Source: an uncultured Candidatus Saccharibacteria bacterium
GTDB lineage: Bacteria > Patescibacteriota > Andersenbacteria > UBA10190
Direction: 5' to 3'
Assembly (NCBI GenBank): GCA_964450915.1
Contig: CAYVFG010000002.1
Coordinates: 5,379-69,378, forward strand
Length of the DNA stretch: 64,000 bases
Made by a program: the position numbers and the translations under genes. Shown here in pieces: positions 1 through 58,505 of this stretch (its first letter is position 1; every line of letters starts with the position of its first letter). The notes below the pieces were generated by a model. That model was not told where the DNA came from, did no database searches, and saw only the letters and a program-made list of their open reading frames with translations.

Positions 1-675
1 GCTTGCTCCTCCGAATTGCGGAATAATCCAGAGCATGATTGCATATGCTATTGCGCACGCAATTCCGATTGCCCCCCACCATGCAATTGGCTTCTTGAAT
101 GGAAGAAGTGCCGGCAAGCAGATCAATAATGCAAATAATGCTGTTGGCGCGACGTATTGCCAATCGTTTTGGCGGTTATGAGCAAGGGTGAGTATTGCTC
201 GCCATACAGGAACTCTCTCTACAAGCGCAAGCGACAAATCTTCTTTGCTTTCCCCAAATCTCACGCCTACGGGATTTTTGATTGTTGACTGCCGCGCAGA
301 ATATTCTATTTTAATCGGAGTATCTGCCGGAATCGGCGCATCCGGGAAGTTGATGTATGTAAATCGATCGTCATGAATATCTTGCGGGCGGATTGTCTGA
401 GAAATTAAGACAGTATTTGATAATGTGTTGTATATCGTTACGGTAACGGGTGCAAGCTCTTTTGCATGATAGAGATTTACTAGTATTGTCCCCAATCCGA
501 TGATATTAGATTGAGTGGTTAATTGCTGAGATGCGGTGTGCCCGGTAAATAGCGGTGCATGGGTTACGTATGAATCGATGCCGGATGATACAGCCCGATG
601 CTGAGTAACTGGGATAAAAAAAGATCCGAGTATCAGAATGAGCCCGCCTGCAACAAAGAGAACTTTTTTATTCAT
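1..675 (-). CDS. Partial CDS (3' end beyond window start). Membrane-anchored protein: N-terminal TM helix (MNKKVLFVAGGLILILGSFF), a periplasmic beta-rich domain of about 175 aa, then C-terminal TM helices. Not in the ORF track because no stop codon lies inside the window.
   Basis: I translated the minus strand by hand from the ATG at 675 and it reads through position 1 with no stop. The architecture matches the N-terminal module seen on 56552..57793 and 18347..20728. Confidence 0.5.
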   Translation of the reverse strand, partial: MNKKVLFVAGGLILILGSFFIPVTQHRAVSSGIDSYVTHAPLFTGHTASQQLTTQSNIIGLGTILVNLYHAKELAPVTVTIYNTLSNTVLISQTIRPQDIHDDRFTYINFPDAPIPADTPIKIEYSARQSTIKNPVGVRFGESKEDLSLALVERVPVWRAILTLAHNRQNDWQYVAPTALFALLICLPALLPFKKPIAWWGAIGIACAIAYAIMLWIIPQFGGAS

Positions 676-711
676 TTCTCGAGTATAGCAGTTTTTGGTA
701 CTGTTTGAAGT

Positions 712-2586
712 ATGTGTGGAATAGCTGGAATATGGAATACGAATGGTGCTCGCATTACGGAGGGGGCCGCGATTGGCATGCAGCAGTCGCTGATGCATCG
801 CGGACCGGACTCATCTGGCATCTATGAAGGGGAGGGTGTTGCGTTGGTGCATACTCGACTTTCCATTATTGACCTTACGGATAATGGTGCACAGCCGTTT
901 ATTTCGGAAGATTCCCGATACGTGCTTGTGTTCAACGGAGAAATTTATAACTATCAAGAATTACGTGAGCAATTTTTTCATGATCAGGTCTTTCGTTCAG
1001 AATCTGATACTGAGGTGCTGCTCTATATGCTGGTTCGGTTTGGAACATCTGCATTCCAGTATTTGCGAGGAATGTTTGCAGTTGCATTTTATGACACGCA
1101 GGAGAAAAAGATGATTGTAGCAAGAGACGCTTTTGGTAAAAAACCTCTGTATTACTATCAATCTGGGGATATTTTTGTATTTGCTTCAGAGTCAAAGGCG
1201 ATTCTCGCGTCTGCGTATGTGTCGGCGCAACTGGATACCAGTGTTGTTGCGCCCTATTTTTTACACGAGTACTGCCCATTTCCCAAGTCAGGATTTGAGG
1301 GCATAGTATCGGTAGGTGCGGGCCACTATATGGAAATTACGCAGGCAGGTACGCATAGCTCTGCCTGGTGGAAGCCAGAAATTCTCCCCAAGCATCATGT
1401 GTCGTTCAAAAAAGCATTATCCACTTTTGATGAATTGCTTGGGAATGCAGTGGCAAGAAGAATGGTAGCAGATGTTCCTGTGGGATTATTTTTGAGCGGG
1501 GGGCTCGATTCGAGTACGATCGCCTGGTATATGAGGCGGATAAAAACGAGTGGCGAAATCCACTCATGCTCCGTGGCCTTTGATGATGATACGTTTAATG
1601 AAGAGCACATCGCGTCTCAAGTTGCCCATAATTCTGATCTTACTCATCATCGCATCCTATTTACGAAAGATTCTTTTTTGCAGTCAGTCGATGAACTTAT
1701 CCCACTCCTCGACATCCCCTTCGCAGATTCTTCGCTATTGCCTACGTATGCAGTCAGCAAGCTAGCAAGGCAATACATGAAAGTTGTCCTTGATGGGGAC
1801 GGGAGCGATGAATTGCTTGGGGGCTACGGTACGTTTAATGCGCATGAAGTTGCACATAAGCTTTCTTGGATTCCAAGTGATGCGTGGGGCGCCATCGGGC
1901 AGGGGGTCGATACTGTATTTTCTGTATCGCACTCATATTTCTCCCTCGATTTCAAAATCAAATCATTTTTACGAGGCGTATCGTATCCTCCAATGCGAAA
2001 TCTTCAAGTATGGCTCGGGGCATTTACGGAACATGAGATATCAGAGCTTCTCATTAAGAAGGATGATGCTCGAAATGTGTTTGAGTTTGTAGATTCAATA
2101 CAGTATCCGGCCACGGCTGATAATTTTGAGAAAGCTTCGCTGTATCATATAGCAAGCTACCTTTCTGAAGACATTCTAGTGAAACTGGATAGGGCAACGA
2201 TGGCCGTGGGGCTAGAAGCAAGAACCCCGTTTTTGGACACCGATGTAGCAGAGTTTCTTCTTCGTCTTCCGTCCTCCTATAAGAAGAATAAGAGAATTCT
2301 TCGAGAACTCATGCGAGGCAGATTGCCAGACATTGTCGTCACGAGAAAGAAGCAGGGATTTGGCATTCCGATTTCCTCTTGGTTTGCACATGACTTACTT
2401 CCGTTTGTTGAACGAGTGTTATCGCCAGAGGCTGTCGCGGAAGTTGGATTATTTAACTATCAATATATTCGCATTATTATTGATGAGCATCGCAGTATGA
2501 AGCACGACCACAGGAAAAAAATATGGTCACTCATAGCATTTCAGCTGTGGTACGAATACTGGATATTGGAAAAAAAGAGAGCATGA
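712..2586 (+). CDS. asnB: Asparagine synthetase (glutamine-hydrolysing) family protein. In this context it is likely a sugar or uronate amidotransferase.
   Basis: MCGIAG N-terminus with Cys2 nucleophile (class II glutamine amidotransferase). SGGLDSS PP-loop ATP pyrophosphatase motif. 624 aa, typical AsnB length. Confidence 0.9.
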   Translation: MCGIAGIWNTNGARITEGAAIGMQQSLMHRGPDSSGIYEGEGVALVHTRLSIIDLTDNGAQPFISEDSRYVLVFNGEIYNYQELREQFFHDQVFRSESDTEVLLYMLVRFGTSAFQYLRGMFAVAFYDTQEKKMIVARDAFGKKPLYYYQSGDIFVFASESKAILASAYVSAQLDTSVVAPYFLHEYCPFPKSGFEGIVSVGAGHYMEITQAGTHSSAWWKPEILPKHHVSFKKALSTFDELLGNAVARRMVADVPVGLFLSGGLDSSTIAWYMRRIKTSGEIHSCSVAFDDDTFNEEHIASQVAHNSDLTHHRILFTKDSFLQSVDELIPLLDIPFADSSLLPTYAVSKLARQYMKVVLDGDGSDELLGGYGTFNAHEVAHKLSWIPSDAWGAIGQGVDTVFSVSHSYFSLDFKIKSFLRGVSYPPMRNLQVWLGAFTEHEISELLIKKDDARNVFEFVDSIQYPATADNFEKASLYHIASYLSEDILVKLDRATMAVGLEARTPFLDTDVAEFLLRLPSSYKKNKRILRELMRGRLPDIVVTRKKQGFGIPISSWFAHDLLPFVERVLSPEAVAEVGLFNYQYIRIIIDEHRSMKHDHRKKIWSLIAFQLWYEYWILEKKRA

Positions 2587-2590
2587 TAGA

Positions 2591-4626: not shown

Positions 4627-6651
4627 ATGATTTTAGCGTTCTTAAAACGGCATAAAATAGACGCATATTTAGCAGTAGGACTGTTTCTTATTGCTTTTTT
4701 ACCAAGAGTATTGGGCTTGGGGGCGTTTTTGACTGCAGATGAAAAAAACTGGATCGGCAGATCGTATGAATTTGTGCGCGCATTTCATGATTTGCGATTT
4801 AATGACATGTTGCAGACGACTCACCCGGGAGTTACTACGCTATGGGTATCCGGTCTTGCGGTGATGGTTAAGTCGGCGATCTCACATGTCCAATTTGCGG
4901 ATACGAATTTGATTTATTTCGTGAAAATTACGCAATTTTCCATTGCGCTGGTAAACGCTCTCGCAATTCCTGCAATCTTCATTCTGCTATTGTTGGTACT
5001 AAGAAATCGTTTTCTTGCTGTTTTGGCAACGCTCTTTATTGCGCTCGACCCGTTCATTATAGGATATTCCAGAGTGGTTCATGTGGACGTGCTGATGGGG
5101 AGCTTTTTAACGCTTGCCGTACTAGCGAGCATGCTCTACGCCCGTCACCTTACTCGTCCATGGCTTGTTGCAAGCGCAGTGCTTTCCGTGCTGGCGATTC
5201 TCACAAAAATACCCGCTGTATTTATTTTGCCATTCATTATTGTTGCGCTGATTGCATATCATCCGGAAAAGATTATTTCGTGGCAATTTTTGCGTGATAG
5301 GGTTCGAGATGCTGTTACGTGGGTGCTCATGGGTGTTGTTATCACGCTTCTTATATGGCCCGCATTGCTGTGGGTGCCAAATCCTTCTGGAAACGTGCTG
5401 GAACTCAAGCGCGATATTTCTGATGCTGCCGTAACTCCTCATGACTCAAACGAGGATTATAACTTAGACGCAACGCACTATCCGTACGCATTACTCGATC
5501 GATCAAACCCAGTAACGCTCGTATTCGGAATAGTCGGACTCATGGGAGTAATTGTTCTTGTGGCAAAAAAGAAGGTTCCGCGAGAAATGCTGCTCATTGC
5601 AATATATTTGATCGGATTCGTTCTTATGATGACGCTTGGCGCGAAGAAAGGGGATAGATATATTATTGCCGCATTTTTTGCTCTCGACATATTGGCTGCG
5701 TATGGAGTTGTGTGGGTTGCATCGCTTGTGCCCACGCTCATAAAGCGCTTCAGGGGGAATGATAGAGTGTTTGCATTGCTTACAGTTGGGTATTTGTGCT
5801 TTATTGTACTGTCGTATCATCCATACGAAATTGCATATAGTAACCCGTTTTTTAAGGATAATTTGAGTCAGGAGTTAGGATGGGGCGAAGGGTTGGATCA
5901 GGTTGCTGCCTGGCTGAATACGAATCATCCTGACGCAGTTGTGGCTTCATGGTACCCGGAGGAGCTCGGAACGTTTACATCCGCTACGGTATTGCATATT
6001 AATGCGCACACGCAAAATCCGGTGAACTATATCGTCCTCTATCAGAATATGTTTGGCAGGTCCCCGGATTATTATTCAAATGATTTCATTGACGAATATT
6101 ACAAGAAGCAAATCCCTGTGTACGTTGCGAAAGTTGCGGGCAAAGAATATGCGTGGGTGTATGCAAAGCCAAGCTACACCAGCTCTGTTGGGGATTTGAA
6201 TGCGCAAACTGTTGCGATTCAGGAAATCGAAGTTACTCATAACGATATTGCTGGATTTCAGTTTTTGCCAGCGACGCATTTTGGAAAATCCGATACCGGG
6301 TCGTTTGCTATCAGTGTTTCTAAAACTTTAAACGGTCCTGTGCTATTTGCAACGAACATTTCAGTTACGGACGTAAAAGATACTCAATGGCAGCAGGTCT
6401 TGTTTCCTGATTCTCTCAAGATTGCAAAAGGCGATCATTTGTTTGTGAGCGTTCGAGGGGCTGGGACGACAGATCCGTATCCATCTGTGAGATATTCTCA
6501 AGCAGATATTCGAACTACGCCAATATATATCTCTCGAACTGGTAGTTCGCTTGAGGCGAAGCAAAAAACAGGAACAATGGCCATTCAATTGCTCTATCGC
6601 GATATTCAGGACAAGATTTCTACGGAACTAGAGGAAAAATTGCTGAAATAA
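4627..6651 (+). CDS. GT-C membrane glycosyltransferase, paralog family A. PMT_2/ArnT-like membrane domain plus a periplasmic C-terminal domain of about 280 aa.
   Basis: N-terminal PRVLGLGAFLTADEKNWIGRSYEF...HPGVTTLW. C-terminal GWGEGLDQVAAWLNTNHPDAVVASWY. Paralogous to 20725, 24710 and 36587. Confidence 0.65.
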   Translation: MILAFLKRHKIDAYLAVGLFLIAFLPRVLGLGAFLTADEKNWIGRSYEFVRAFHDLRFNDMLQTTHPGVTTLWVSGLAVMVKSAISHVQFADTNLIYFVKITQFSIALVNALAIPAIFILLLLVLRNRFLAVLATLFIALDPFIIGYSRVVHVDVLMGSFLTLAVLASMLYARHLTRPWLVASAVLSVLAILTKIPAVFILPFIIVALIAYHPEKIISWQFLRDRVRDAVTWVLMGVVITLLIWPALLWVPNPSGNVLELKRDISDAAVTPHDSNEDYNLDATHYPYALLDRSNPVTLVFGIVGLMGVIVLVAKKKVPREMLLIAIYLIGFVLMMTLGAKKGDRYIIAAFFALDILAAYGVVWVASLVPTLIKRFRGNDRVFALLTVGYLCFIVLSYHPYEIAYSNPFFKDNLSQELGWGEGLDQVAAWLNTNHPDAVVASWYPEELGTFTSATVLHINAHTQNPVNYIVLYQNMFGRSPDYYSNDFIDEYYKKQIPVYVAKVAGKEYAWVYAKPSYTSSVGDLNAQTVAIQEIEVTHNDIAGFQFLPATHFGKSDTGSFAISVSKTLNGPVLFATNISVTDVKDTQWQQVLFPDSLKIAKGDHLFVSVRGAGTTDPYPSVRYSQADIRTTPIYISRTGSSLEAKQKTGTMAIQLLYRDIQDKISTELEEKLLK

Positions 6652-7199: not shown

Positions 7200-7229
7200 T
7201 TTTTACTACATAAATACTCTATTTGTCAA
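7200..7229 (-). promoter_or_regulatory. Sigma70-like promoter for the carrier-protein-like gene: TTGACA, 18-nt spacer, TAAAAA (read on the minus strand).
   Basis: Reverse complement of 7224-7229 is TTGACA and of 7200-7205 is TAAAAA. A GAAAGAGAG Shine-Dalgarno-like stretch lies about 10 nt before the ATG at 7146. Confidence 0.3.
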
Positions 7230-10021
7230 TATTTCTTTTTGTATGGGAATGGTATTGCGTATATGACCACGCATGCGATGATTCCTAGCACTGTGAGGAT
7301 TTCTGCAGTATGCACGGCGGGGGAGATGTATCTGAATGACACGATATGCGATCCTGCTGGTACTTGGGCTGCTTTAAACATGGTATCTGCTTTCATCTGA
7401 GGCGCTATCTTGCCGTCGATGTATGTTTGCCATTGGGGAAGCGTGCTATCCGTTACCACGAGGTATGCTGTTTTGTTTGTTGTTACTTGGACATCTACCC
7501 GTGTTTCTGTGTATGAGGTAATAGTTGCGGCAGCCTGCATTGTAATGTCCGGTTGATTATCGGTAAGATCGGGTGGTGTTGGAGCTGAAATATATACTAG
7601 TGACTTCGGATCAAAATCTTTGCTTCTCATTTGTGCTCGAATTTCATCATCCGCAGCAACGAGCGTTGCATGAGGCACCATAAATGCCTTTGGATATGCA
7701 TCTTTATTCTCGTATAATCGAACGTTACTGTCCCCAGTATCTGCAACATCAATAACTTTGTAGCCAGCATCAATCATAGGATCGTTTGTTTGTCCGTAAT
7801 CAAGTGATTGAGTGAAATGCGTAATACCAACGAGATTTACCAATGATCGATTCCGAGTGAGTGCGTGAACACCATCTCCATCGAACGCATCTGAATCATT
7901 TGCAAAGAATGAATCTACGAATTCTCGATAAGGGCGAATAGATAATGCCCCGATCCAGCGGGCGCTGGATGCACCTGCTACTGCTTGCATGTTGCGTACC
8001 AGCAAAGAGCTGTCTAAATCATGGGTAAGCGGATATTGCGCAGTATACTGAACGCTGAGAGGTTTTTTCGATACTGCTAGCTGTTTCGGAGTAGGGTTTT
8101 CAACTCTCATGAAGTAGGAGTCGGATTCATCGTTAATACTTGGGCTCATGAATAATTTCATGTTTGTATGTTCGGTGCTTGAAAATACAAGCATAAGATC
8201 TTTCTTGTTGCTTTCTGGTATTTGGGGGAAGCAGATTGTCTGATTTACTTTCTTAAATGCGTCTGCTGATGAAATGCTGGTGCGATACCATATCGTACCA
8301 GTTCGGCCGGATTGTACGGTAAGGTTTAGGTGAGAATTAGTATCGGAATCTGCCTGGATAGGTATAAGGAGACAGGATAAGTTTGACTGAAGAATGGTAA
8401 GTGGCTGATACACTGAAAATTTTGGAGATATATAATCAGAAAGCGTAATTTTTACATGAGGGTTGCCTGTGACGGGAAGATGTTCTGCTGCATACAGACG
8501 AGCAGGAAGTCCGGTATCGTGTTTGAATTCTTGGAGATCCTGAGCGAATGTAGATACTGCAAGCGCTTCGTGAGTTGCAACCCGAGGATTGTAATTCCAT
8601 CCGTATCCGATAAGGGTAATTGCTACTATCACTGGGATAGTCCAATAGAAAGTGCGGAATAATGAAACAATAACTGCAATAACCCCTACCGCTATCAGGA
8701 TAATAAAGCCGTGATTCCAGGAAAGACGTTCTGTCAGTATAGCCACAGCGTCTGTATTCTTCGTTGCGTATATCCAAAAGGGAAGAACGATAAGAAGAAA
8801 CGGCACCAGTATTGCGGAGAATGTTTTTGCTATTTTGGATGCTAGAGATGTTGATGCGTGTTCAATAATATCTTGCAACCCCGCAACAGCAAGTAACACC
8901 ATTCCAACGTCGAAAAAGAATACGAATCGTCCAACTACTCCTATGGTCTGAATGTAATGATTATTTACTAAAAATTGATACACAATCGAATATCGCCCAA
9001 GCATCAGGGTGATGCCAGTTACTACCAATATCAATCCAGATGTTCGTTCAATGCGCTTTGTGCGCCAATTGATTAGTGCAATACCTGCGAGCATGATCGG
9101 GATAATTCCGGTATATGCTGCTAATTCTTGAAATCCTTTCGGTCCGAAGTAATTATCGTGATCTCCAAATATGTAGGGGAAAATAAGAGTAATCGAGTCA
9201 TATGGGGGATAGCTGAATTCAAACAGCTCAGTGTAGGGCAAACCTGCTGCACGTTCTGTTTCCGGAACGAATTCTTGCAACGGCAGGATTGCTAAAGCGG
9301 AAAGGCAAACTCCCAAAATTCCCGCGAATATAGTGAGAGCGATTTTTTTACCAGCACCCTTTACGTTCTGTTTGATAGTTGGAATAAATGTGGTGAGCCC
9401 TAAAACCCCTGCTATGAAAAAGACGTACGCCACAACTTGCGGCTGCCCGCTCATTGCAATTGCTGCCGCGACGATTGCAAGAGTTGCTGAGTTTTTAACC
9501 GAGGGCTTTTTCAGTAACACATCTATTGTAATAAGCAACAATGGCAGAAGCATTGTGCTTGTATAGAAATTGACGTGATTCAAATGTCCGATAGAAAATC
9601 CGCAGTAGGCAAAGAGAACAGCACCTAGACTTGCAGCGGCGGGGTGGAATAGTCGCCTTCGCAAATAGGCGTACATGCACACACTGCCTATTAGGAAATA
9701 CAGAACAATAGACGCCTGAAGTAGGATGACAGGGGGTACATATAAAGCGCGCAAGATAAGGTGGATAGGGGTAAAGAAGCCCAGTTGACCCCATGCTAAC
9801 AGAGGCTGGCCGAATCCGAACTCGTTGCTCCACAGCGGCAGCTGCCAGTGATGTTGAAACTGCGCATAGACTGTTTCAATGGGGTAATAGATGATTTTAA
9901 GATCATCTAAAAAATACATTTGCTGGCCGGAAATAATTGGGCTGAAAAATACGAGCCAGCTTACAAGGACGAGTCCGATTCCAATAAATTGAGGCTTGAT
10001 ATTCATACGTTTATTTTTCAC
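7226..10021 (-). CDS. YfhO-family-like large membrane protein (931 aa) with a long periplasmic C-terminal domain.
   Basis: N-terminal region FFSPIISGQQMYFLDDLKIIYYPIETVY...LPLWSNEFGFGQPLLA resembles bacterial YfhO. Many TM helices. Overlaps the upstream gene by 11 nt. Confidence 0.6.
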   Translation of the reverse strand: MKNKRMNIKPQFIGIGLVLVSWLVFFSPIISGQQMYFLDDLKIIYYPIETVYAQFQHHWQLPLWSNEFGFGQPLLAWGQLGFFTPIHLILRALYVPPVILLQASIVLYFLIGSVCMYAYLRRRLFHPAAASLGAVLFAYCGFSIGHLNHVNFYTSTMLLPLLLITIDVLLKKPSVKNSATLAIVAAAIAMSGQPQVVAYVFFIAGVLGLTTFIPTIKQNVKGAGKKIALTIFAGILGVCLSALAILPLQEFVPETERAAGLPYTELFEFSYPPYDSITLIFPYIFGDHDNYFGPKGFQELAAYTGIIPIMLAGIALINWRTKRIERTSGLILVVTGITLMLGRYSIVYQFLVNNHYIQTIGVVGRFVFFFDVGMVLLAVAGLQDIIEHASTSLASKIAKTFSAILVPFLLIVLPFWIYATKNTDAVAILTERLSWNHGFIILIAVGVIAVIVSLFRTFYWTIPVIVAITLIGYGWNYNPRVATHEALAVSTFAQDLQEFKHDTGLPARLYAAEHLPVTGNPHVKITLSDYISPKFSVYQPLTILQSNLSCLLIPIQADSDTNSHLNLTVQSGRTGTIWYRTSISSADAFKKVNQTICFPQIPESNKKDLMLVFSSTEHTNMKLFMSPSINDESDSYFMRVENPTPKQLAVSKKPLSVQYTAQYPLTHDLDSSLLVRNMQAVAGASSARWIGALSIRPYREFVDSFFANDSDAFDGDGVHALTRNRSLVNLVGITHFTQSLDYGQTNDPMIDAGYKVIDVADTGDSNVRLYENKDAYPKAFMVPHATLVAADDEIRAQMRSKDFDPKSLVYISAPTPPDLTDNQPDITMQAAATITSYTETRVDVQVTTNKTAYLVVTDSTLPQWQTYIDGKIAPQMKADTMFKAAQVPAGSHIVSFRYISPAVHTAEILTVLGIIACVVIYAIPFPYKKKY

Positions 10022-12173
10022 TTTCTGGATAGTACGGAACGATACCCGTCATATTAATAATAATATCCCCCGCCTTCGCTGAAGCTTCGGCGGGCAAGCC
10101 TGCCAGAGAGTCTGCATATATAATATCTGCGTTCGGGTTTTTTGCATACAGTCTGAATAGATACGCATTTAAGCTTGTTTGTTGATCGGGGGTAATGCCT
10201 ATAATAATAATCCTTTTTTCTTGCGGCGTATTTGTTTCTTCATGAAGCAATTGCCGATATGCATATTGGGTATATGCGGATTGTTCGCGGGCAAAACGTG
10301 TAAGGTTCTGATCTCGGGCAACTACAAAGCCGTATATGCATACAAGTATAAATAGCGCATACCAAATACCATTCCATTTTTTAGGGATGATGCGTTGTGC
10401 TATTGCAACGATTGCGAGGCTGGTTCCGAAGATTGCAAGCGTTAACCATCGAGAGCGCCAATCACTAGTAAATAGAAGAAACGGCCCAACGAACAGTAAC
10501 CACCAAAGATAACTAAATACTAGAATATTCCTTGTGCGCGCATGCTTCCAAAAAGCTACAATACTCGCTATCGCTACTACTATAATAATTACTCCCGGGT
10601 AATATGGACCGGCAGTTTTAAGCCGCCATAGTTCCAAGGTATTTGATAGAAACGATTCTAAGCGATTTGTATATGCAGTTTGCGGCCATAACCGCTGTTC
10701 TGCGGTAAAGCTGGTATATATAACGACATTTCGAACAATATTGATCGGATTTGCCGAGAGTGCGTATGTTTTGTCCGTATGCTTATGCTCGGGGAGCGTT
10801 GGGTCGCCAAGCATCGCCGTATTAACGACGAGGAATGCGCCTGCCATGAGTATGTAGGGCAATATATTGCCAAGTATGTGCTTGAGATTACGTTTTGAAA
10901 TTCCAGAAACAAGTTCGATGCCTGCGAGCGCAATCGGGAGAACGATGACGTATTCTTTTGAGAATAACGCAATAACAAACGAAATGATGCTGGCGTAGAA
11001 TATTTTTTTATTTCCCGAATCCTTCCATTTGAAATATAAAACAGCTGACAGCATTGCAAATATCGAAGCGAGCAAATCTTGCACAGAACTCCACCAGTAT
11101 AAAAGGCCTATTTTGGAACTGTGCGACATCCACAGAGCAACAGCAAGCAAGCTTGCTGAGCGAGAAGCTGTGATGCGATGTGCTAGTACGAATAAGCAGC
11201 ATGCTGTTCCTGCGAACAGCAACATATTCAAGAAGTAATACAAACCCGCATCGGGCGGGAGGACTAGGTGGAGCAAGAGCGGGTAGAGCGAAAAGCTTAT
11301 CGGCCTGTAAAAATCGAAACCAAACTGAGATGCCGGATCTGCGTCTGTGTATCTATGCGGAGTAAGGAGTAGCAATGGATTGTGCTGCCACAGCTGTGCG
11401 ACCCGAACAAGAATGGGTACATCGTCGCTATAAAAAAATAAATGTGTTGCAGGCCAATATAGTACAAGCGATGTAATAATTATGATCGCAAAGTATGCAT
11501 GATTTTTTCCATGCAATTTCATGTTTCTGTCTTTGATAACGGGGAGTTGCTGAAAAGTTTTTTGTCGCATGAGAAAAATTGCAGCTACGCATATCATGAC
11601 TCCGAGCCATACTCCTCTTTGATGCGGCAGCGCAAGCCATCGGACTAGTTGCAGCGCAATCGTTGGTTTTTCATACTCGATAAGGCCTAGTGATCCTTGT
11701 TTTTGTATCCCTGCTTGCGTCACGACGCTCGTAGGGTCGAGTGTTGCATCCGATTGATACGCAATTTTTATTGCGTGTGCTTTAGGAAGCTGCTGTGCGC
11801 TGATAGTAATGCTGTACTGCTTACCTGAGCTCATCGCTTGGCGTGGTAGCGCAATACGGCCAAGATTTTTTACTGGAACGTTTTGTTCGGAAATGATGCG
11901 ATTTTCAGAAATATCTTTAATACCTATATGGGCCAGGTCGTCTGGGTATTGAGATTCTGCATATAGGCCGATTGCAGAAAGGCCTCGAGAAGCTGCCGTA
12001 AATTCTTCTGTGAGTGGATATGCCGCAAATACCTGGTGTTTATGTGTGCTGTCGGGTGTTCTGTGTACTGCAGTACGCTCACTTGCGCGGATTGATAAAA
12101 CGTAGCATAGCGTAATGCTTAGTACAGCGAAAAGCGCTATTTTTGCCTGTTTTTGCCACTTTTTCATGTTCAA
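10011..12173 (-). CDS. Large membrane protein (720 aa): signal anchor, an N-terminal periplasmic module of about 200 aa, then about 12 TM helices. Probably GT-C-like.
   Basis: The hydrophobic pattern supports this layout. The N-terminal module carries the recurrent LTEEFTAASRGLSAIGLYAES motif shared with other proteins in the locus. Confidence 0.5.
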   Translation of the reverse strand: MNMKKWQKQAKIALFAVLSITLCYVLSIRASERTAVHRTPDSTHKHQVFAAYPLTEEFTAASRGLSAIGLYAESQYPDDLAHIGIKDISENRIISEQNVPVKNLGRIALPRQAMSSGKQYSITISAQQLPKAHAIKIAYQSDATLDPTSVVTQAGIQKQGSLGLIEYEKPTIALQLVRWLALPHQRGVWLGVMICVAAIFLMRQKTFQQLPVIKDRNMKLHGKNHAYFAIIIITSLVLYWPATHLFFYSDDVPILVRVAQLWQHNPLLLLTPHRYTDADPASQFGFDFYRPISFSLYPLLLHLVLPPDAGLYYFLNMLLFAGTACCLFVLAHRITASRSASLLAVALWMSHSSKIGLLYWWSSVQDLLASIFAMLSAVLYFKWKDSGNKKIFYASIISFVIALFSKEYVIVLPIALAGIELVSGISKRNLKHILGNILPYILMAGAFLVVNTAMLGDPTLPEHKHTDKTYALSANPINIVRNVVIYTSFTAEQRLWPQTAYTNRLESFLSNTLELWRLKTAGPYYPGVIIIVVAIASIVAFWKHARTRNILVFSYLWWLLFVGPFLLFTSDWRSRWLTLAIFGTSLAIVAIAQRIIPKKWNGIWYALFILVCIYGFVVARDQNLTRFAREQSAYTQYAYRQLLHEETNTPQEKRIIIIGITPDQQTSLNAYLFRLYAKNPNADIIYADSLAGLPAEASAKAGDIIINMTGIVPYYPESEK

Positions 12174-12220: not shown

Positions 12221-12835
12221 ATGCGCATTGCATGGTATGTATGTTTCATCACTTTGATCGTATTCGTATTTTTATACGCGTGGTATTTGCCTGCAAACAA
12301 TGCGAAACAACTTATTCTCGATTTGCCCGCGAACGGAATCAGCAAGAGTATTGCAGTTACGAATGATACGAAGATAGTTCAGGAGATTAGGCTAGAGCAA
12401 TCCGCAAATAGCATAGAATTGCCATTATGCGTTGGGCAGCCTAGTGCACCTGGAATGATTCATCTTACTGTTCTCAAGGATAGCAAGGTTATTACGGGAC
12501 AGGATCAGTATATTGAACCAGATATTGTATTTGCGTTGCCTGGTGCGGGAATTTCTGGGGATGTTACGCTTGAATTTGTATTTTCCGGAATAGAAAAGAA
12601 TAGCGATATTGCCATTCCTACTGCATTCGGAAAATATGCGAATTTGTCAGGGACGGTTACGCAATATGTATTGCAAGGCAATCAGTGGAAATCAGTTGAT
12701 ACCAGAAACGGCAATATTGCATTGACGCTGTACCATATTCCGCCAAAAAATCATGTATTTGCGATGGTAGAGTCATTTATAGTACCAATGATCGGAATAA
12801 TCGTATTCATAATTCTATGCGCAAAGAATTTGTAA
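12221..12835 (+). CDS. Membrane-anchored protein: N-terminal TM, a beta-rich periplasmic module, and a C-terminal TM. The track ORF begins at 12143, but the likely start is Met27 at 12221.
   Basis: AAGAGG lies 13 nt upstream of the ATG at 12221. The module motif KIVQEIRLEQSANSIELPLCVGQ...GMIHLTVLKD is shared with 18347, 56552 and 10011. Confidence 0.5.
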   Translation: MRIAWYVCFITLIVFVFLYAWYLPANNAKQLILDLPANGISKSIAVTNDTKIVQEIRLEQSANSIELPLCVGQPSAPGMIHLTVLKDSKVITGQDQYIEPDIVFALPGAGISGDVTLEFVFSGIEKNSDIAIPTAFGKYANLSGTVTQYVLQGNQWKSVDTRNGNIALTLYHIPPKNHVFAMVESFIVPMIGIIVFIILCAKNL

Positions 12836-14550
12836 TTATTTCGCTTGTTGGATTGCTGCTTGCAGGTATTGCGACGGCGCCATTATATGTTCATCCCGAA
12901 TATATAAGCAATCATGGTGATATCAATCGAGGATTGATATATAACGCAATTGCGAAGCGAGATATACTGAGCGGCCATCTGCCTGCGTGGAATCAATACA
13001 TTTGCGGAGGCATGCCGCTTGTGGGCGATTTGGAATCGTGGTTTCTGCATCCGATATTTTTCCTGACCTTTCCGTTTCCCGAGGTATTGGCGATGAAGAT
13101 AGGGTATACGCTGGTACTTTTCAGCTCGTTTGTGGGCTTTTATGCATTGGCTCGAATTATTTTAAAATTCAAGATTACAGGTGCTGCGCTGTTTGCAATA
13201 ATTGTAGCGTTTGGCGGGTACATCTCAGCGCACTTAGCAGAAGGGTATTACGTATGGACAGCAAGCGCATACGTGCCATGGTTTTTGTTGTCCGCCATGT
13301 TGGCATTGAGAAATTTGAAATTCATCCCGTTTGCCGGATTGATGCTCGCATTCATGTTTGGAGCAGGAAGTATGCATCTAGCCGTATACAGCATGCTTTT
13401 TATAGGGATTATATATGCATTCCCTATGGCTGAAAGCAAATTTTTCCGACGCGTTACACTATGGCTGGCGATCGGCGCGTTTTTCGTAATCCTATCTGCC
13501 GCAAAGCTTCTCCCGGCGCTTTCCCTTCTTACGGCAACCAGTTCCAGAGAAGGATTTGCGCCCGCTATTACAATGCTTCCGGAAATACTATTTGGCAGAG
13601 GATTGCTTGGGCCGGTCATGCAGGCCGGGCAAATAATTCGATGGGGAGAATTCGACGAATATATCGGAATGCTTACGGGAACTGTGGCTGTTATCGGCGC
13701 CAGCATATTTCGAAAAAGGCTATGGCATGCATACAAAGCATTTTTGGTCGCGAGCATTATAATGGCAGTTATTGCATTTTTGCCGTTACCGATTACGCAT
13801 GGATTTATCAGTCATGTTTTTGATTTATTCCGCATGCCAAGCAGGGTGTTGCTGTTTGCGGTATTTGGGATCGCGCTTGTTGCAGGATACGCAGTTGACG
13901 CAATTGCTTTGCCTCGAGGTGTTTTTGCGATAAAAGCGTTGATACTGCTTGTTATTACGCTGGATCTTCTTTCGAACGACATAACGCTTTTTTCTCGAAC
14001 GTTTACGGTGCCTCTTCCGGAAAAGCATGCGGAGACAACGTTTCAGCGAGTCAGCCATGCGTACACTTCTGGGGATGAGGTGTATTATCGGGCAATATAT
14101 TTGGATTTTCTGGAAAATAGAGGGACGAAGGATGTGTGCAGGTTTTATCAAGCGGGGCCGTTTAGTAGATCAATTGACGAAACGGATCCGAGGTATATCT
14201 CTCAAGGAGAAATATATTTGGATGATGCAAAATCCGGAACCGTCTCATATACAATGAATACCAGGAGCGAATATAGTATTCACGCAAACATTCAGTCAGC
14301 AACGCGAATTATCATTAATCAAAATTATTATCCGGGCTGGGTGGCAAGTTCCGGGCAAAGAGTTGAAAATTATCATGGCGTTATCGCTATTTCTGTCGTG
14401 CCTGGAATATATGATATTACGCTGAGGTACAATCCGAATACGGTGTATTGGGGAATGGGAATATCTGCGCTTGGTTTTTTGATTGGCTTGCTGGTGATTA
14501 TGAGAAGATCTGGTCGTACCACTGGCGATACCAATCAACAAACCTCTTAG
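12817..14550 (+). CDS. YfhO-family-like membrane protein (577 aa).
   Basis: SGHLPAWNQYICGGMPLVGD near the N-terminus is a YfhO-like motif. About 14 TM helices. Overlaps the preceding gene by 19 nt in another frame. Confidence 0.6.
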   Translation: MRKEFVIISLVGLLLAGIATAPLYVHPEYISNHGDINRGLIYNAIAKRDILSGHLPAWNQYICGGMPLVGDLESWFLHPIFFLTFPFPEVLAMKIGYTLVLFSSFVGFYALARIILKFKITGAALFAIIVAFGGYISAHLAEGYYVWTASAYVPWFLLSAMLALRNLKFIPFAGLMLAFMFGAGSMHLAVYSMLFIGIIYAFPMAESKFFRRVTLWLAIGAFFVILSAAKLLPALSLLTATSSREGFAPAITMLPEILFGRGLLGPVMQAGQIIRWGEFDEYIGMLTGTVAVIGASIFRKRLWHAYKAFLVASIIMAVIAFLPLPITHGFISHVFDLFRMPSRVLLFAVFGIALVAGYAVDAIALPRGVFAIKALILLVITLDLLSNDITLFSRTFTVPLPEKHAETTFQRVSHAYTSGDEVYYRAIYLDFLENRGTKDVCRFYQAGPFSRSIDETDPRYISQGEIYLDDAKSGTVSYTMNTRSEYSIHANIQSATRIIINQNYYPGWVASSGQRVENYHGVIAISVVPGIYDITLRYNPNTVYWGMGISALGFLIGLLVIMRRSGRTTGDTNQQTS

Positions 14551-18346: not shown

Positions 18347-20728
18347 ATGCATACAGGGGCATTTTTAAAACTATTTACGTATGTTCGGTCATATCCCGTA
18401 GTAGTTTTATTCTGCCTGTTTCTTATTGTGATTGCATGCTACCTTGCCGCGCCTATTTCATACAGCCGCATAATCCCAGCTCCGCAAGGCGAAAATGATC
18501 GATTGTATTTTGGGGGCGCGAAAGTCGTGTCCCAAGAATTTATTCCGCACACCGGGTTGTCGGAAATTAACGTTCCGGTAGGAAGCGCCGATCATCCTAA
18601 GACTCCTCTTATATTGCATATTCGAAAATCAGCTGACAGTAGTGACATTGTGGCCATACCGCTCTTCTCGCTACAAAATGAAACTGCAAAGTTCAGATTC
18701 AATCCGATACTGCTGCCGCCTTCTCGTTTAGTGTGGATTATTGAGGCTCCGCACGCTGCAGGAAATTCGTTTTGGACATATCGCGAACAGGATGTCACGG
18801 CGTTTCCGGAAGGCCACACATATCAAAATAACAGATCCGTTAAAGGTAATATCGGATTTTCGGAGGTATGGACATATCCAAGATTCGCAGCAATTATTCA
18901 TACATTTAAAACATCGTCAGGGCATGGATTTGCTCCATTCGAATATGCCAGCGCGTACGCGGGGATTGCGGCACTTGCGGGTGCTATGCTGCTGAAGCGA
19001 CGAAACATAGCCGAAAAAACTATTGTGCTATGGTGCATTGCACTTGGAATAGCTCTGCATATATGGCTCGCCCTCACCACGCCCGTTATTATTGATGAAG
19101 GCGCTTATATTCAGGATATATTGCAGGCATCGCACCATCTGCTCCCGTTCCGAGATTTTCTTACAAAAGGCCCCGCATACCTATTTATATTGTGGTTGTG
19201 GAGTTTTATAGTGCCGCACACCGTTGTTGCATGGAGGCTCCTCTCGGCAATCTTATGGGCATTGGGGACGTGGTGGTTTTGGCAGCTTGCAATTGAATTT
19301 GATTTGCAGAAACGCTCTCGACTTCTCGCGACTGCGGCATTCGGCATTATGCCGGCATCAATAGCGCTGAGTACGCCTTTGTTGCTCGAAACCGCAAGTA
19401 TCCCAATTTCTCTGTTAGGGCTTTTATGCATCATCCGATCAGCAAAAAAATCTTCCTGGAAACTTGCAGCGCTTGCAGGGGCAGTGTTTGCAATGGCATT
19501 TTTCGTGCGTGTTACTGCTGCTATTCCCGCATGTATTGCATTGATCGCGCTTCTCGTGTTTGCTAAAAAACAATTCAAAATAAAGTTAGCAGGTGCGTAT
19601 ATTGCAACTGGGCTTTTATTATTCGGTCTGATGTTCTGCTCGAGTGTGGCAATTATGGGCATTCATAAAGCATCCGTCGTGGTAAATATGGAAGCTCTCC
19701 TTATTTCTCAGAATCGCCAGCAGAATGTTCAAGTTTCTGATGCGCCCAGCGACCCTGCGTTTAGAACTATTATTATTCAATCTCGATTGCTATGGAGAAC
19801 TGGTGTTTTGTTTGTTGCGTCGCTTTTCTTAATTCCTCTCCTGCTTATTGATCGTCGAAGAATTCTACTGTCGTTTTCCATTTTTACTGCCCTGTTCTTT
19901 GCATGCAGATACGTTGTTCTTACGTTGTACGATACCGGGTTTTTGTTGCCGAAACACTTCGCCACCTCAGTACCGTTTATATTGATTATGATTATTGGAG
20001 TCCCGCTCCTTACTGCGTTCGCGGCGTTTTTCTATAATCGAACCGAAAAGATGCGAGACCACTCAACACAAGCCCTTTTCGTCATACTATTCTTGGTATG
20101 GCTTGCGTTCTCGGGGTACGCGTATGCAAAATATGGAAGATTTCGTCAAAGTTACCTTACTGAATTCATCCCTCAGCTGGCACTCTTTTTCGGAGTCGGG
20201 TTTCATTTCCTATTTACTACTTGGAGTGCCATAAGGCCCGTATGGCTTTCTCGGCTACTCACTGGCGGGATGTTGTTTTTAATGGGCGCAGGCGTATATC
20301 AAGGGTATGCAATGGCTGAGATGTTCCCGCATACCGGTACGGTGGATCAGGGAAGTCTCGTTCGTATTGTGAGGCTTATTCAAGAAAATGTTCCAAAAGG
20401 GGATATGATCTTTACTGCCCAGCCGGTAGCAACTGCGTTTTCTGAGCGACAGATCATGTTCGGGTATTCTCATCCCGGGTGGTATCGGGAAGCTATGTTC
20501 GGTACCGTTTCTGTAGAATTACGGAATCTATTATTCAGGACTCCTGAGGCGATAACCGATTATTTAAAACATGAAGCTGAATTCGTGCTGACGGATAGCA
20601 GAACAAATGAAATCTATTTCGATGGATATCCGGAGCGTGCTGCTATCCTGAAACAGGATTTTGAAGAAATTTCCTCCACTATAAACGAAACTGCAGGAGA
20701 TACGTACACCCTTTACCGTCGGCGCTAA
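18347..20728 (+). CDS. GT-C membrane glycosyltransferase, paralog family B. It carries an extra N-terminal anchor plus beta-rich module of about 220 aa.
   Basis: IIDEGAYIQDILQASHHLLPFRDF is a PMT_2 DE motif. C-terminal FTAQPVATAFS...HPGWY is shared with 22977. Confidence 0.6.
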   Translation: MHTGAFLKLFTYVRSYPVVVLFCLFLIVIACYLAAPISYSRIIPAPQGENDRLYFGGAKVVSQEFIPHTGLSEINVPVGSADHPKTPLILHIRKSADSSDIVAIPLFSLQNETAKFRFNPILLPPSRLVWIIEAPHAAGNSFWTYREQDVTAFPEGHTYQNNRSVKGNIGFSEVWTYPRFAAIIHTFKTSSGHGFAPFEYASAYAGIAALAGAMLLKRRNIAEKTIVLWCIALGIALHIWLALTTPVIIDEGAYIQDILQASHHLLPFRDFLTKGPAYLFILWLWSFIVPHTVVAWRLLSAILWALGTWWFWQLAIEFDLQKRSRLLATAAFGIMPASIALSTPLLLETASIPISLLGLLCIIRSAKKSSWKLAALAGAVFAMAFFVRVTAAIPACIALIALLVFAKKQFKIKLAGAYIATGLLLFGLMFCSSVAIMGIHKASVVVNMEALLISQNRQQNVQVSDAPSDPAFRTIIIQSRLLWRTGVLFVASLFLIPLLLIDRRRILLSFSIFTALFFACRYVVLTLYDTGFLLPKHFATSVPFILIMIIGVPLLTAFAAFFYNRTEKMRDHSTQALFVILFLVWLAFSGYAYAKYGRFRQSYLTEFIPQLALFFGVGFHFLFTTWSAIRPVWLSRLLTGGMLFLMGAGVYQGYAMAEMFPHTGTVDQGSLVRIVRLIQENVPKGDMIFTAQPVATAFSERQIMFGYSHPGWYREAMFGTVSVELRNLLFRTPEAITDYLKHEAEFVLTDSRTNEIYFDGYPERAAILKQDFEEISSTINETAGDTYTLYRRR

Positions 20729-44755: not shown

Positions 44756-44775
44756 AAGTTCAAAGCCCAATGCCA

Positions 44776-44895
44776 CTACTTGCCAGCCTGTTTTCTTTGC
44801 TTCATGCAAATAATGCACAGGCACACGAGAATCACGATCAGCGCCAACCAGTAACGTAGACTTGCAGTGCGGAAAGCATCGATCACGGTTTCCAT
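44776..44895 (-). CDS. Unannotated small single-TM protein of 39 aa (METVIDAFRTASLRYWLALIVILVCLCIICMKQRKQAGK).
   Basis: Translated by hand. AAAGGGG Shine-Dalgarno about 7 nt upstream of the ATG at 44895. It lies 39 nt downstream of the GT9 gene and is followed by the terminator above. Confidence 0.3.
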   Translation of the reverse strand: METVIDAFRTASLRYWLALIVILVCLCIICMKQRKQAGK

Positions 44896-44934
44896 GGCAG
44901 CCCCTTTGAGAAAAGACCAGAACACCCGGAACTA

Positions 44935-51878: not shown

Positions 51879-51896
51879 AGTATCTCATTGGCGTGT

Positions 51897-51932
51897 AAAT
51901 AATAAAAGCGCAGATGCGTTAGTTCTGCGCTT
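51897..51932 (-). terminator. Perfect Rho-independent terminator on the minus strand: stem AAGCGCAGA / TCTGCGCTT, a 9-nt loop, then TTATTATTT.
   Basis: Inverted repeat 51906-51914 / 51924-51932. The A-run 51897-51905 on the plus strand is the T-tract on the minus strand. Confidence 0.5.
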
Positions 51933-51943
51933 GTGGTTATCGT

Positions 51944-52096
51944 TTACTCCTTGTGATTAAGCGGCCTCCTTGCTTCGTTCGTGTGGCTACACTGCACGCC
52001 ACTCGGGTCTCGCACGGTTTCGGTGCACTGGACTCGAATAAGCGTTAAGCCAATCTGCTCTTTTGCCTCCCAACGATCTCTTTGCTGCCTGCTCAT
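51944..52096 (-). other. GC-rich element containing a 50-codon ORF (MSRQQRDRWEAKEQIGLTLIRVQCTETVRDPSGVQCSHTNEARRPLNHKE) with an AAAGGG Shine-Dalgarno. It could instead be a structured sRNA.
   Basis: Translated by hand. It lies between the GT2 stop (52171) and the terminator, and its composition differs from the flanking genes. Confidence 0.2.
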
Positions 52097-56555: not shown

Positions 56556-57793
56556 AGCGGAGCTCCGTATGCAAGCGTTACAGAAGCTACATGCATAAAA
56601 TCAAGCAACGCAATAATTACCAGCAACGCAAGAAAAACTTGTACAAAACGATCGTTTTTACCAATAAATTGCTGCATCTTATGCAATCCAAGCGACGCAA
56701 ACCATGCAATGCACCATGCTACAGGAATCCATGCACCCAAAGATAACGTTATAAGCAATGCAACGCCCACGAACAGATCAATGACCACTCTATTGCGAGT
56801 AGTTCTAGTAAGGCAATAGAGCAATACGGCAATCCCAATACAAGCAAAAAATATGGCAAAGAATCCGACGTATGCGCCAGCGGCATGAGAAACCTTGATT
56901 TGATTCGGATCAATGAGAGCGTCCTTGAAAGATAACTTCGTAATTGCGGTATGTGTTGCAACCAGGGCTAACGGTAGCCACGTCGAACACGCGACAATGC
57001 ATGCTCCAAAGAGTGCGGACAAGCGCGATCTGCCAACAATGCGAAACACCCACCATGCTATCAGCAATACCCCGAATACGAGTAGGCCATATAGGGCCAT
57101 GCTTGTCGTACTCCCAATAGCAGACAGTCCCTGCAATCCGGCAATGGCAATAAGAAGAAGGTGATCGCGCAAGAGTGGGCGCCTTTGCAGGAATGGAAAT
57201 GCAATGAGGGCAAGCCCTGCTAGCACAACGATTCCGCCAACTTGCTTAATGAGCGCTGGATGCAATACTTCATCTGCCGTATATGCAAAGGGATACTGTT
57301 GCGGCGCCCCATCAATGAAAAAGTGAACCTCTTCTCCGGAAAAATCGTTATCGAATGTCCTATTTCTAAGCGCAATGTCCGTTGAAATAGAATCTGAAAC
57401 CGTTACATGAATGCGAAGAGTTTCATCCTGAGCGCTTGCAACAGGATGATCAAATATAAACTGGGTGGGAACAGTTTGATCGATATATAGCGAATTAACA
57501 GTTGCAGTCTCCAGCACAGTGTCGCCGCGCATCAGCTGAAGAGTAATAATTCCTGTGTGATGCAATAACGGATGCAGAGGCAGGAAATATATTCCTACTC
57601 GGGAAATAATTTTATTATGAATAACAGCATCTTGGTCATACGAAACACCTGCTTGCATCGGTACGAGATACTTCGACTCTTCAGTAGGAGTTAATTTTAT
57701 AAATTGCTCATCTGTTTTTATCGTGAAAAAAGAAGCCCCAAGCGCTATAAGAGCGATTCCGATTGCTAGCTTGATTATTCCCATCTTATTCAT
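56552..57793 (-). CDS. Membrane protein: signal anchor, a periplasmic beta-rich module of about 180 aa, then about 7 TM helices. The start is MNKMGIIKL at 57793; the track ORF starts at 57832.
   Basis: An ATGA overlap with the upstream small ORF supports the 57793 start. Module motif DEQFIKLTPTEESKYLVPMQAG...GIITLQLMRGD. Confidence 0.5.
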   Translation of the reverse strand: MNKMGIIKLAIGIALIALGASFFTIKTDEQFIKLTPTEESKYLVPMQAGVSYDQDAVIHNKIISRVGIYFLPLHPLLHHTGIITLQLMRGDTVLETATVNSLYIDQTVPTQFIFDHPVASAQDETLRIHVTVSDSISTDIALRNRTFDNDFSGEEVHFFIDGAPQQYPFAYTADEVLHPALIKQVGGIVVLAGLALIAFPFLQRRPLLRDHLLLIAIAGLQGLSAIGSTTSMALYGLLVFGVLLIAWWVFRIVGRSRLSALFGACIVACSTWLPLALVATHTAITKLSFKDALIDPNQIKVSHAAGAYVGFFAIFFACIGIAVLLYCLTRTTRNRVVIDLFVGVALLITLSLGAWIPVAWCIAWFASLGLHKMQQFIGKNDRFVQVFLALLVIIALLDFMHVASVTLAYGAPL

Positions 57794-57969
57794 ATGCGCG
57801 TTCTTATATAATACATCGTCACAAACATACAAGCAGCGGCTGCTAACGCAGGAAATACGAGCACTGAGAACGTAGCAGGGTGCAGGTAGCGGGCATACGC
57901 CACAATGCTGGCAGAAATGATGAATGCGATACCTAGCAGCAAATCTATATTTCTCTTTCGCGATTCCAT
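57790..57969 (-). CDS. Unannotated small 2-TM membrane protein of 59 aa (MESRKRNIDLLLGIAFIISASIVAYARYLHPATFSVLVFPALAAAACMFVTMYYIRTRI).
   Basis: Translated by hand. Its stop TGA overlaps the ATG of the downstream gene (ATGA). It is just below the track's 60-aa cut-off. Confidence 0.3.
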   Translation of the reverse strand: MESRKRNIDLLLGIAFIISASIVAYARYLHPATFSVLVFPALAAAACMFVTMYYIRTRI

Positions 57970-58505
57970 AGGCTTTTTATATAATCCTTTGTCTGAGACA
58001 TAGTAGGCATCACTGGATATACCCTAGCATGAATGTCGCTTACGCTCCATTGAACAGGTTCCCCGTCCGTAAACAGCATCATATCGATAGACTGGTTTGT
58101 ATCCTGAAACGATGCAGTAACTGGGAATAGCAATGTTTTCGTTTGCAATCCTGCCTTGTCTACATCTTTATTGTAGAGCTGTTCCTTATCATACCCAAGC
58201 CAAAATACGCCATTTCGGACGCCTAAGTCTATCGTATTTGCATGCTCGGGATTAAACGTGATAGTTATGGCAATCTCTTTTCCAAATACAGGAGAATTTA
58301 TAAATACATCTGCATGCGCTAAGGATTCTAAAATATGCGTAGTATTATCTTGAATAGGGTAGGGGATAGCATGTATGGTTTCCAATGGAGCAATGTTTAC
58401 CGGCCCCGAATACAAAATAGGGCGAATATATATAGCGCCCGTAATGATAAGCGCCAACAATATGCAGATGCTGCTATTTGCGAATAATCGATTTTGCATA
58501 CGCAA
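57945..58505 (-). CDS. Membrane-anchored hypothetical protein (186 aa) with an N-terminal TM helix and a beta-rich domain.
   Basis: N-terminal hydrophobic helix SSICILLALIITGAIYI. No recognised catalytic motif. Confidence 0.45.
   Translation of the reverse strand: MRMQNRLFANSSICILLALIITGAIYIRPILYSGPVNIAPLETIHAIPYPIQDNTTHILESLAHADVFINSPVFGKEIAITITFNPEHANTIDLGVRNGVFWLGYDKEQLYNKDVDKAGLQTKTLLFPVTASFQDTNQSIDMMLFTDGEPVQWSVSDIHARVYPVMPTMSQTKDYIKSLWNREREI

Follow-up and report, generated by a model that had tools for sequence, protein, structure and literature searches.

A putative portable beta-sandwich cassette at the N-termini of GT-C-type and other membrane proteins in a glycan-assembly island of the Andersenbacteria

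Enzymes of glycosyltransferase class C (GT-C) build many cell-surface glycans, and the way in which they choose their acceptors is known for very few of them. An accessory beta-sandwich on such an enzyme is an already known idea: the module for carbohydrate binding (CBM) at the C-terminus of EmbC is needed for acceptor binding (PMC3044687), and AftD carries three beta-sandwich CBMs that are thought to hold a complex glycan acceptor (bioRxiv 10.1101/2019.12.22.885152). Here we describe five proteins encoded in a 64-kb stretch of DNA from an assembly labelled uncultured Candidatus Saccharibacteria (contig CAYVFG010000002.1; the whole stretch is hereafter called the window), which share at their N-termini a single, still unnamed domain of some 150 residues in diverged copies, each bracketed by two membrane helices. 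The bracketed unit is referred to as the cassette, and its copies are lettered A (in the gene starting at 18347), B (10011), C (12221), D (56552) and E (the partial gene 1..675).

Like the domains of EmbC and AftD, the cassette is predicted to hold a beta-sandwich at the outer membrane face, covalently attached to a GT-C enzyme that would use a lipid-linked sugar. No sequence relationship to these systems was found, however, as PDB sequences searched with either the module profile or the full-length A profile gave no match, and whereas the known domains are C-terminal or lie within a large soluble region, the cassette is N-terminal and two-helical. Furthermore, acceptor binding has been demonstrated for EmbC and would hold for the cassette by analogy only, and the organisms and pathways are unrelated. 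By sequence, the cassette stands outside the defined CBM families. New here are the domain family itself, the N-terminal two-helix arrangement, the existence of split as well as fused versions, and the distribution over different kinds of core inside a single island of a Candidate Phyla Radiation (CPR) bacterium; a literature search on N-terminal sandwiches of CPR GT-C enzymes returned nothing relevant.

All five proteins were present where the preliminary description of this DNA had placed them, and each was composed of a hydrophobic helix, approximately 150 beta-rich residues, a second hydrophobic helix and then basic residues. Cassette A (18347..19021, plus strand) comprises the first transmembrane helix (TM1; amino acids (aa) 19-37), a beta core (aa 38-190; nucleotides (nt) 18458-18916), a linker helix and the second transmembrane helix (TM2; ~aa 200-217), and forms the N-terminus of a 793-aa protein of the PMT_2 type of GT-C (18347-20728, plus strand; PMT_2 match at aa 274-426). 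Cassette B (11529..12167, minus strand), composed of TM1, a beta core (nt 11619-12083), an amphipathic helix and TM2, begins a 718-aa polytopic protein (10011-12167, minus strand; start codon set by the relative P0032) that is a probable distant PMT_2-like GT-C. Cassette C (12221..12835, plus strand) is a separate 204-aa gene with TM1, a beta core (nt 12293-12760) and TM2. Cassette D (57158..57793, minus strand; TM1, beta core nt 57218-57718, TM2) is located at the N-terminus of a 413-aa protein (56552-57793, minus strand; start codon set by P0034 and P0039) and precedes a core of 6-7 transmembrane helices, and cassette E (61..675, minus strand; TM1, beta core nt 160-609, TM2) is the N-terminal part of a gene truncated at the window edge, whose relatives (22 family representatives) are 730-800 aa long, 734 aa in the orthologue at the related locus L008. 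The sequence motif by which the modules had been recognized was found in all five and occupied the same columns in the profile alignments.

The five modules are too diverged for simple comparison to relate them. BLASTP between them, in a 51-protein database, gave no cross-match better than E 0.8; a hidden Markov model (HMM) of 26 A-family modules detected no other module in the window proteome; and an early hhalign comparison of A and C with shallow alignments was unconvincing (P 0.02). The five cassettes were aligned into a 5-module profile, with which 1.84 billion representative proteins were searched exhaustively by HMMER. This search yielded 56 representatives at E 0.001 or better, nearly all of which matched at their extreme N-terminus. 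Sorting with single-sequence phmmer assigned 7 of them to the A type, 17 to B, 4 to C, 4 to D and 22 to E, and set P0076 apart as a separate stand-alone type. The remaining sequence, the repetitive 1236-aa protein P0074, matched none of the five modules by phmmer and was treated as spurious.

Each family was then realigned alone, trimmed of its transmembrane helices and compared with the others by hhalign. Significant links were obtained for A-B (probability 99%, E 1e-17), B-E (98%, E 1e-13), D-E (88-94%, E 1e-7, precisely 1.4e-7), B-D (72-92%, E 7e-7, precisely 6.9e-7) and B-C (56-77%, E 2e-5), so that the B family serves as the hub joining the others, while A-C, A-D, A-E, C-D and C-E were not significant individually. 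The family alignments were all collinear. Reversed-template controls scored no higher than 21, with P no better than 0.009, compared with scores of 32-108 for the real links. Consistently, the B-family HMM matched the window A protein at E 1.7e-10 (aa 56-173) and the E protein at E 1.4e-3, and phmmer with the single A module gave 34 bits for P0047 and 32 bits for P0048, both of the B type. A pooled superfamily alignment of 50 sequences (B, A, E and D cores) matched the C family with a probability of 80-82% at E 1e-5 over 125 collinear columns, and the superfamily HMM found C in the window at E 0.0096, with noise beginning at E 0.5; on these sequence scores C is the weakest member. Positions conserved across the families (in B-core numbering) were F19/G20, Q26, L35, an aromatic residue at F79, A96-P97, R108, D112, G130, G/A133-F/Y134 and E138.

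These results bear on the simplest objection, that there is no common module at all and that the likeness is no more than a signal-anchor helix with a beta-rich outer segment behind it would produce. The empty pairwise BLAST, the silence of the A-family HMM when used alone and the half of the family pairs lacking direct significance are what would be expected on such a view. Nevertheless, the profile links still reached E 1e-17 with the helices removed and with reversed controls at P 0.009 or worse, a single-sequence bridge was found at 34 bits, and full-length collinear alignments placed the same conserved columns together and were joined by a shared predicted fold; we regard this view as scarcely credible, and for A, B, D and E a likeness by chance can be dismissed. 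These four are almost certainly of common ancestry, and there is good reason for confidence that C belongs with them. The claim of the preliminary description that a common, separable module recurs in these proteins was thus upheld by links from E 1e-17 to 2e-5, although directly for only the five pairs A-B, B-E, D-E, B-D and B-C.

A structural model of the B core was built from the pooled alignment with AlphaFold2 at high confidence (predicted local distance difference test (pLDDT) 96.3, predicted template modelling score (pTM) 0.88), and consisted of eleven strands and a C-terminal helix running into the second membrane helix. The C core, modelled from seven C-family sequences only and thus independently of the other families, gave a less confident model (pLDDT 76.6, pTM 0.76) having 11 strands in the same order as in B. 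Secondary-structure states of B and C agreed at 62% of positions, compared with 44-61% at shifted registers, a measure that does not discriminate between all-beta proteins, and the likeness of the folds of these two modelled cores is accordingly one of strand order. From the models, the domain is very probably a beta-sandwich, predicted as an 11-strand jelly roll followed by a short amphipathic helix, in agreement with the beta-sandwich that had been proposed from the sequence.

Foldseek searches against the PDB placed both models in the jelly-roll class. The top match of the B model was a PBCV-1 capsid protein (8h2i_bG; E 5.6e-6, TMq 0.63), followed by a baseplate protein of phage phi812 (9eui_Q; E 1.9e-4, TMq 0.65), and its lower matches included CBM6, CBM36, CBMs of esterases, the furin P domain, GOLD domains and BcsB. 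The C model matched CBM6, RetS, the same phi812 protein, CBM35/36/61 and BcsB, so that 9eui_Q, CBM6 (1uxx, 1o8s), 7tok_B, 6lnw_C and BcsB were neighbours common to both. Among predicted viral structures, a chlorovirus DUF5901 protein, actinophage minor tail proteins and proteins described as 'Carbohydrate-binding, CenC-like', pectate-lyase or dockerin were matched; the viral fold matches thus include capsid, baseplate and tail proteins, the tail group being predicted to contain receptor-binding proteins. No Pfam family covered the module in the window proteins, in ten relatives or in 50 aligned cores (none recurring even at E up to 5), and a scan of NCBIfam gave no match over the domain.

Two groups of described proteins are therefore comparable with the domain at the level of fold. 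It shares with CBM6, CBM35, CBM36 and CBM61 its fold class (1gmm, 1uxx, 1o8s, 1ux7, 2w3j, 2xom) and a size of 120-150 residues; it differs from them in that no Pfam CBM model matched any of the 50 cassette members, that neither ligand residues nor a calcium site was identified in it, and that these CBMs are soluble appendages of secreted enzymes whereas the cassette is membrane-bracketed. The viral jelly rolls, namely 8h2i_bG with the DUF5901 protein Q98583, 9eui_Q and the actinophage minor tail proteins, resembled the B model at E 1e-6 to 5e-4 and TMq 0.6-0.66, but at the fold level only (9-16% identity, no sequence match), and they are soluble virion proteins. Many viral surface proteins of the jelly-roll fold presumably recognize cell-surface glycans.

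Basic residues were observed before TM1 and after TM2, both in a simple hydropathy scan and by direct reading, and the middle part would therefore lie outside the cell; an outward orientation of the sandwich is likely from these signals. The module had been called periplasmic, a term to be replaced by extracytoplasmic, as the organism belongs to the Patescibacteria group, whose members are not known to have an outer membrane. In protein A, TM2 is followed by a short loop, KRRNIAEK, then by the first core helix and the DEG motif, and this layout aligns with that of the close paralogue 22977-24494, which lacks the module (hhalign of the two cores: E 5e-44, 485 columns); the place of the DEG loop likewise speaks for an outward-facing sandwich. 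Since the core of A is laid out as in the module-less paralogue, the unit is a cassette of helix, domain and helix that is predicted to leave the topology of its partner unchanged. Beginning and ending in the cytoplasm, as we propose, such a cassette could precede any polytopic protein with a cytoplasmic N-terminus, or be its own small gene, with the topology kept. The module was kept in 26/26 full-length A homologues, with invariant charged and aromatic residues D100, W130, E133, W143, E147 and N168, and the mean pairwise identity in this family was 46% for the beta core, 43% for the GT-C membrane core and 30% for the flanking helices. In the A family, purifying constraint on the sandwich thus matches that on the enzyme core.

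Regarding the cores to which the cassette is joined, that of A was assigned to PMT_2 by Pfam (29.3 bits against a cut-off of 26.1). The B-family protein P0065 matched PMT_2 at E 1.4e-5 and 25.8 bits, slightly under the same cut-off, and the B core resembled the protein encoded at 4627-6651 (hhalign probability 65%). The D core gave no match in Pfam or by hhalign; a 'DPNQI..SHAAGAY' loop was conserved in its relatives P0034, P0058 and P0081. Gene D overlaps the next downstream gene (55005-56555, minus strand) by 4 nt; the latter product looked MurJ-like by eye. We take both PMT_2 and YfhO to belong to the GT-C class. As judged from sequence, the partners are of GT-C type wherever they are assignable, namely PMT_2-like and YfhO-like, with one additional core of 6-7 transmembrane helices that has no detectable family, and the earlier view that the module sits on different membrane-protein cores was thereby confirmed. 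The description of the 18347 product as a family-B GT-C was not confirmed: its core matches Pfam PMT_2 and no solved structure by sequence, and enzymes of the PMT and ArnT types are counted in GT-C subclass A.

Cassette C illustrates how the unit may exist apart from its partner. Its gene (12221-12835) overlaps by 19 nt the gene 12817..14550 (plus strand), which encodes a polytopic YfhO-like protein (hhalign probability 94% against the YfhO protein 49731-51878), and the same overlap was kept in L008 (10001-12306, GCA_021414205.1) and in L009. In P0033, a 783-aa protein from an ENA contig, the C module (63% identity, aa 1-194) is fused to a homologue of the 12817 product (69%, aa 220-770). By sequence, C and the YfhO-like gene are thus a Rosetta-stone pair, split or translationally coupled here and fused in P0033, and this contrast of split and fused forms predicts a specific physical partnership. 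The 12221 product had been regarded as stand-alone, which is correct insofar as it is a separate gene, but not in view of the 19-nt overlap and the fusion. As a whole, the cassette would have been combined within the island with several enzymes using lipid-linked sugars, namely PMT_2-type GT-C proteins (A; probably also B and E), a YfhO-like protein (C) and the unassigned core of D.

An HMM built on the five modules of the window detected no additional copies; these surfaced only with the 50-sequence profile. One probable copy, corresponding to the first two thirds of the domain, is located at 8162..8416 (minus strand), in the extracytoplasmic part (aa 536-624) of a YfhO-type protein (7226-10021; YfhO by Pfam at E 8e-19). 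It was detected by the superfamily HMM over aa 538-624 at E 6.4e-8 in the window proteome and at E 1.3e-6 in the same region of the L008 orthologue, and by hhalign with a probability of 60-77% (P 2e-5 to 9e-5). The other probable copy, at 6205..6600 (plus strand), forms the C-terminus (aa 527-658) of the PMT_2-like protein 4627-6651, and matched the superfamily HMM at E 1.3e-4 (aa 528-601) and the E-family HMM at E 2.6e-4; a 3-sequence family profile of this protein matched the superfamily with a probability of 73% (E 3e-5, 125 columns) and the E family with 78% (E 1.7e-5). Free-standing relatives, P0076 and three others, matched the superfamily at 97.7% probability and E 1.7e-12. A word-index search for relatives of the C-terminus of 4627, of P0076 and of the 7226 segment retrieved six close relatives only. 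Many bacterial GT39 and YfhO proteins carry a widespread 'GQxF...GDLxF' domain at their ends, to which the cassette may conceivably be linked.

The 186-aa protein 57945-58505 (minus strand), which lies inside the span covered by the preliminary description, could not be matched to the cassettes (P 0.08 or worse) and is a non-member. It combines a single membrane helix at the N-terminus with an outer portion rich in beta structure, shares an overlap of 32 nt with the gene 58474-59904, gave no Pfam or NCBIfam match, and may be, on its sequence features, a different small accessory protein of the outer face.

The family appeared to be narrowly distributed. When about 185,000 species genomes were scanned with the full-length A alignment, 7 proved to contain A-type genes, all of these being metagenome-assembled genomes (MAGs) of candidate phyla, 3 named Andersenbacteria or Anderseniibacteriota and 4 labelled uncultured Candidatus Saccharibacteria. 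The C family consisted of 5 proteins, among them an Andersenbacteria member. All organism-named family members came from Andersenbacteria or Patescibacteria except one, P0087 (NCBI), a free-standing member of the P0076 family from a MAG named 'Actinobacteria bacterium'; this label may reflect a binning or labelling issue, or the protein may be a real occurrence elsewhere. In two other Andersenbacteria genomes (L006, 1136-6295; L007, 1233-6376), B-type and A-type genes are adjacent and divergent, while in the window they are 6 kb apart.

Considering these findings together, the explanation that we regard as the best, and as somewhat more probable than not, is a shared portable cassette that helps GT-C enzymes to bind or position a glycan acceptor. 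The first outer loop is the place of donor and acceptor binding in GT-C enzymes (PMC11127046). Being tethered on both sides near the membrane and directly before the first core helix, the domain should lie beside that loop; the sandwich would accordingly sit on the outer membrane face, adjacent to the initial helix of the GT-C core and its first outer loop, the place where transfer is catalyzed. There it may bind or position a glycan or a glycoconjugate or glycoprotein acceptor, as an accessory module of carbohydrate-binding type comparable with those of EmbC and AftD. That the sandwich itself binds the acceptor or a glycan is proposed by this analogy as quite possible. The jelly-roll fold class of CBMs and the GT-C partners thus accord with the carbohydrate-binding or acceptor-recognition role suggested in the preliminary description, but the fold matches do not single it out and would fit protein contact equally well.

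Several points weigh against this explanation. Fold matches were weak overall (TM-scores (TM) 0.35-0.66, <18% identity), those to CBMs in particular (Foldseek E about 1e-2 to 1e-3, TM 0.35-0.49, identity <18%), while the best ones were to viral proteins of capsids and baseplates (E 6e-6 to 2e-4, TMq 0.63-0.66), a likeness that may point to a role in structure or in protein contact. Neither a ligand nor a binding or metal site was identified, and where the sandwich lies with respect to the active site is deduced from connectivity. As for the partners, the GT-C assignment of B and E depends on weak profile links (probability 41-74%, with E-type cores resembling the A core weakly at 59-74% by hhalign), and the D core is not recognizable as a glycosyltransferase. 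As for the family, C was joined only through B and the pooled profile, and the B, D and E families were recruited with the chimeric 5-module profile, which may mildly enrich look-alike members; such recruitment could flatter the links at 1e-5 but cannot account for those at E 1e-13 to 1e-17.

The viral matches lead to a reading in which the sandwich is a protein-protein docking domain, by which the pathway enzymes assemble together or with a common surface protein such as an S-layer, pilus or secretion component, the result being an extracytoplasmic glycosylation complex rather than sugar binding. The best structural matches, 8h2i_bG and 9eui_Q, are indeed viral proteins that make protein contacts, the GOLD and furin P-domain matches are protein-interaction folds, the domain recurs on 5-7 proteins of one gene island, and the split C must bind its neighbour-encoded partner non-covalently if the two cooperate as the P0033 fusion suggests. 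However, many of the matches of both models are true carbohydrate-binding modules, and the copies are so diverged as to leave no pairwise BLAST signal, which would not be expected of domains that all dock to one another or to a single conserved partner; docking thus seems unlikely, though it deserves to be kept in mind. The cassette could instead be an integral lid or regulatory element that shapes the donor or catalytic pocket, or gates the lipid-linked sugar, without recognizing the acceptor. The conservation of the sandwich in the A family at the level of the catalytic membrane core (46% vs 43%), the invariant charged and aromatic residues listed above, and the very short loop tethering the cassette to the core helix that precedes the DEG motif would fit such a part. 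On the other hand, the close paralogue 22977-24494 has the same core without the cassette, and the cassette also occurs free-standing and at C-terminal and internal positions, which together argue for an add-on module rather than an indispensable catalytic part and make the lid doubtful.

The two-helix bracket with an outward domain also recalls the Wzz-type polysaccharide co-polymerases, which operate alongside flippases and polymerases and share with the cassette this topology and an occurrence in glycan-assembly loci, and the cassette might on this ground be a chain-length regulator. Polysacc_synt-type flippase genes are present in the homologous L008 region, and in the window the products of 16535-17806, 55005-56555 (the gene overlapped by D) and 58474-59904 look like flippases by eye. 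In contrast to the much larger, helical outer domain of Wzz, however, that of the cassette is predicted to be all-beta with approximately 150 residues and lacks the long helical domain, no Pfam Wzz match was obtained, and most copies are fused to glycosyltransferase-type cores rather than free; a regulator of this kind is very improbable.

The surroundings of the cassette genes are in keeping with cell-surface glycan assembly, as a glycan-assembly island fills nearly all of the 64-kb window. Seven PMT_2-like proteins were found by Pfam, 5 over the curated cut-off (genes starting at 18347, 20725, 22977, 24710 and 28131) and 2 slightly under it (4627 and 36587). By Pfam, the genes beginning at 7226 and 49731 encode YfhO-type proteins, and that at 12817 was added by profile; large polytopic proteins without a family start at 2591, 34113, 38139 and 59901. 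Together these amount to ~15 genes for GT-C-type membrane proteins in 64 kb (2591-62180), an extraordinary density for a small-genome CPR bacterium. Putative soluble glycosyltransferases, sugar epimerases, methyltransferases and three flippases are interspersed among them, as judged by reading the translations, and Pfam marks on the orthologous L008 genes (Epimerase, Polysacc_synt) back the epimerases and one flippase. Gene orientation changes from mostly plus to mostly minus near 44.8 kb, and the cumulative GC skew peaks at ~48-52 kb (region about 44000-52000). The closest named relatives came from Candidatus Andersenbacteria, including P0002, 81% identical to the 12221 product, and P0041, and the host lineage lies within the Patescibacteria/Parcubacteria group. 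Divergent from gene A, the gene 17803-18318 (minus strand) encodes a 171-aa protein with an N-terminal hydrophobic helix that looks pilin-like by eye and gave no Pfam match at E 0.01 or better; judging from its sequence, it could be a candidate target of glycosylation.

In conclusion, an unannotated domain family occurs as a mobile cassette on at least three kinds of membrane enzyme core and also as a separate subunit. Accessory beta-sandwiches of GT-C enzymes are known in principle and the family is narrowly distributed; within these limits, domain databases gain a definable new family, and the sandwich offers a confidently modelled, soluble target of ~150 residues for glycan-binding work in bacteria of the Candidate Phyla Radiation, whose surface chemistry is almost unknown. 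As a more speculative and, for now, improbable extension of the favoured acceptor-positioning explanation, the cassette may be a portable, lineage-specific 'address tag', its rapidly diverging sandwiches each recognizing another step in the growth of a single surface glycan or glycoprotein. If this is true, sandwiches carried on generic GT-C enzymes or supplied as a subunit would order a multi-enzyme extracytoplasmic assembly line in a minimal-genome organism, and would represent an undescribed modular specificity system for membrane glycosyltransferases.

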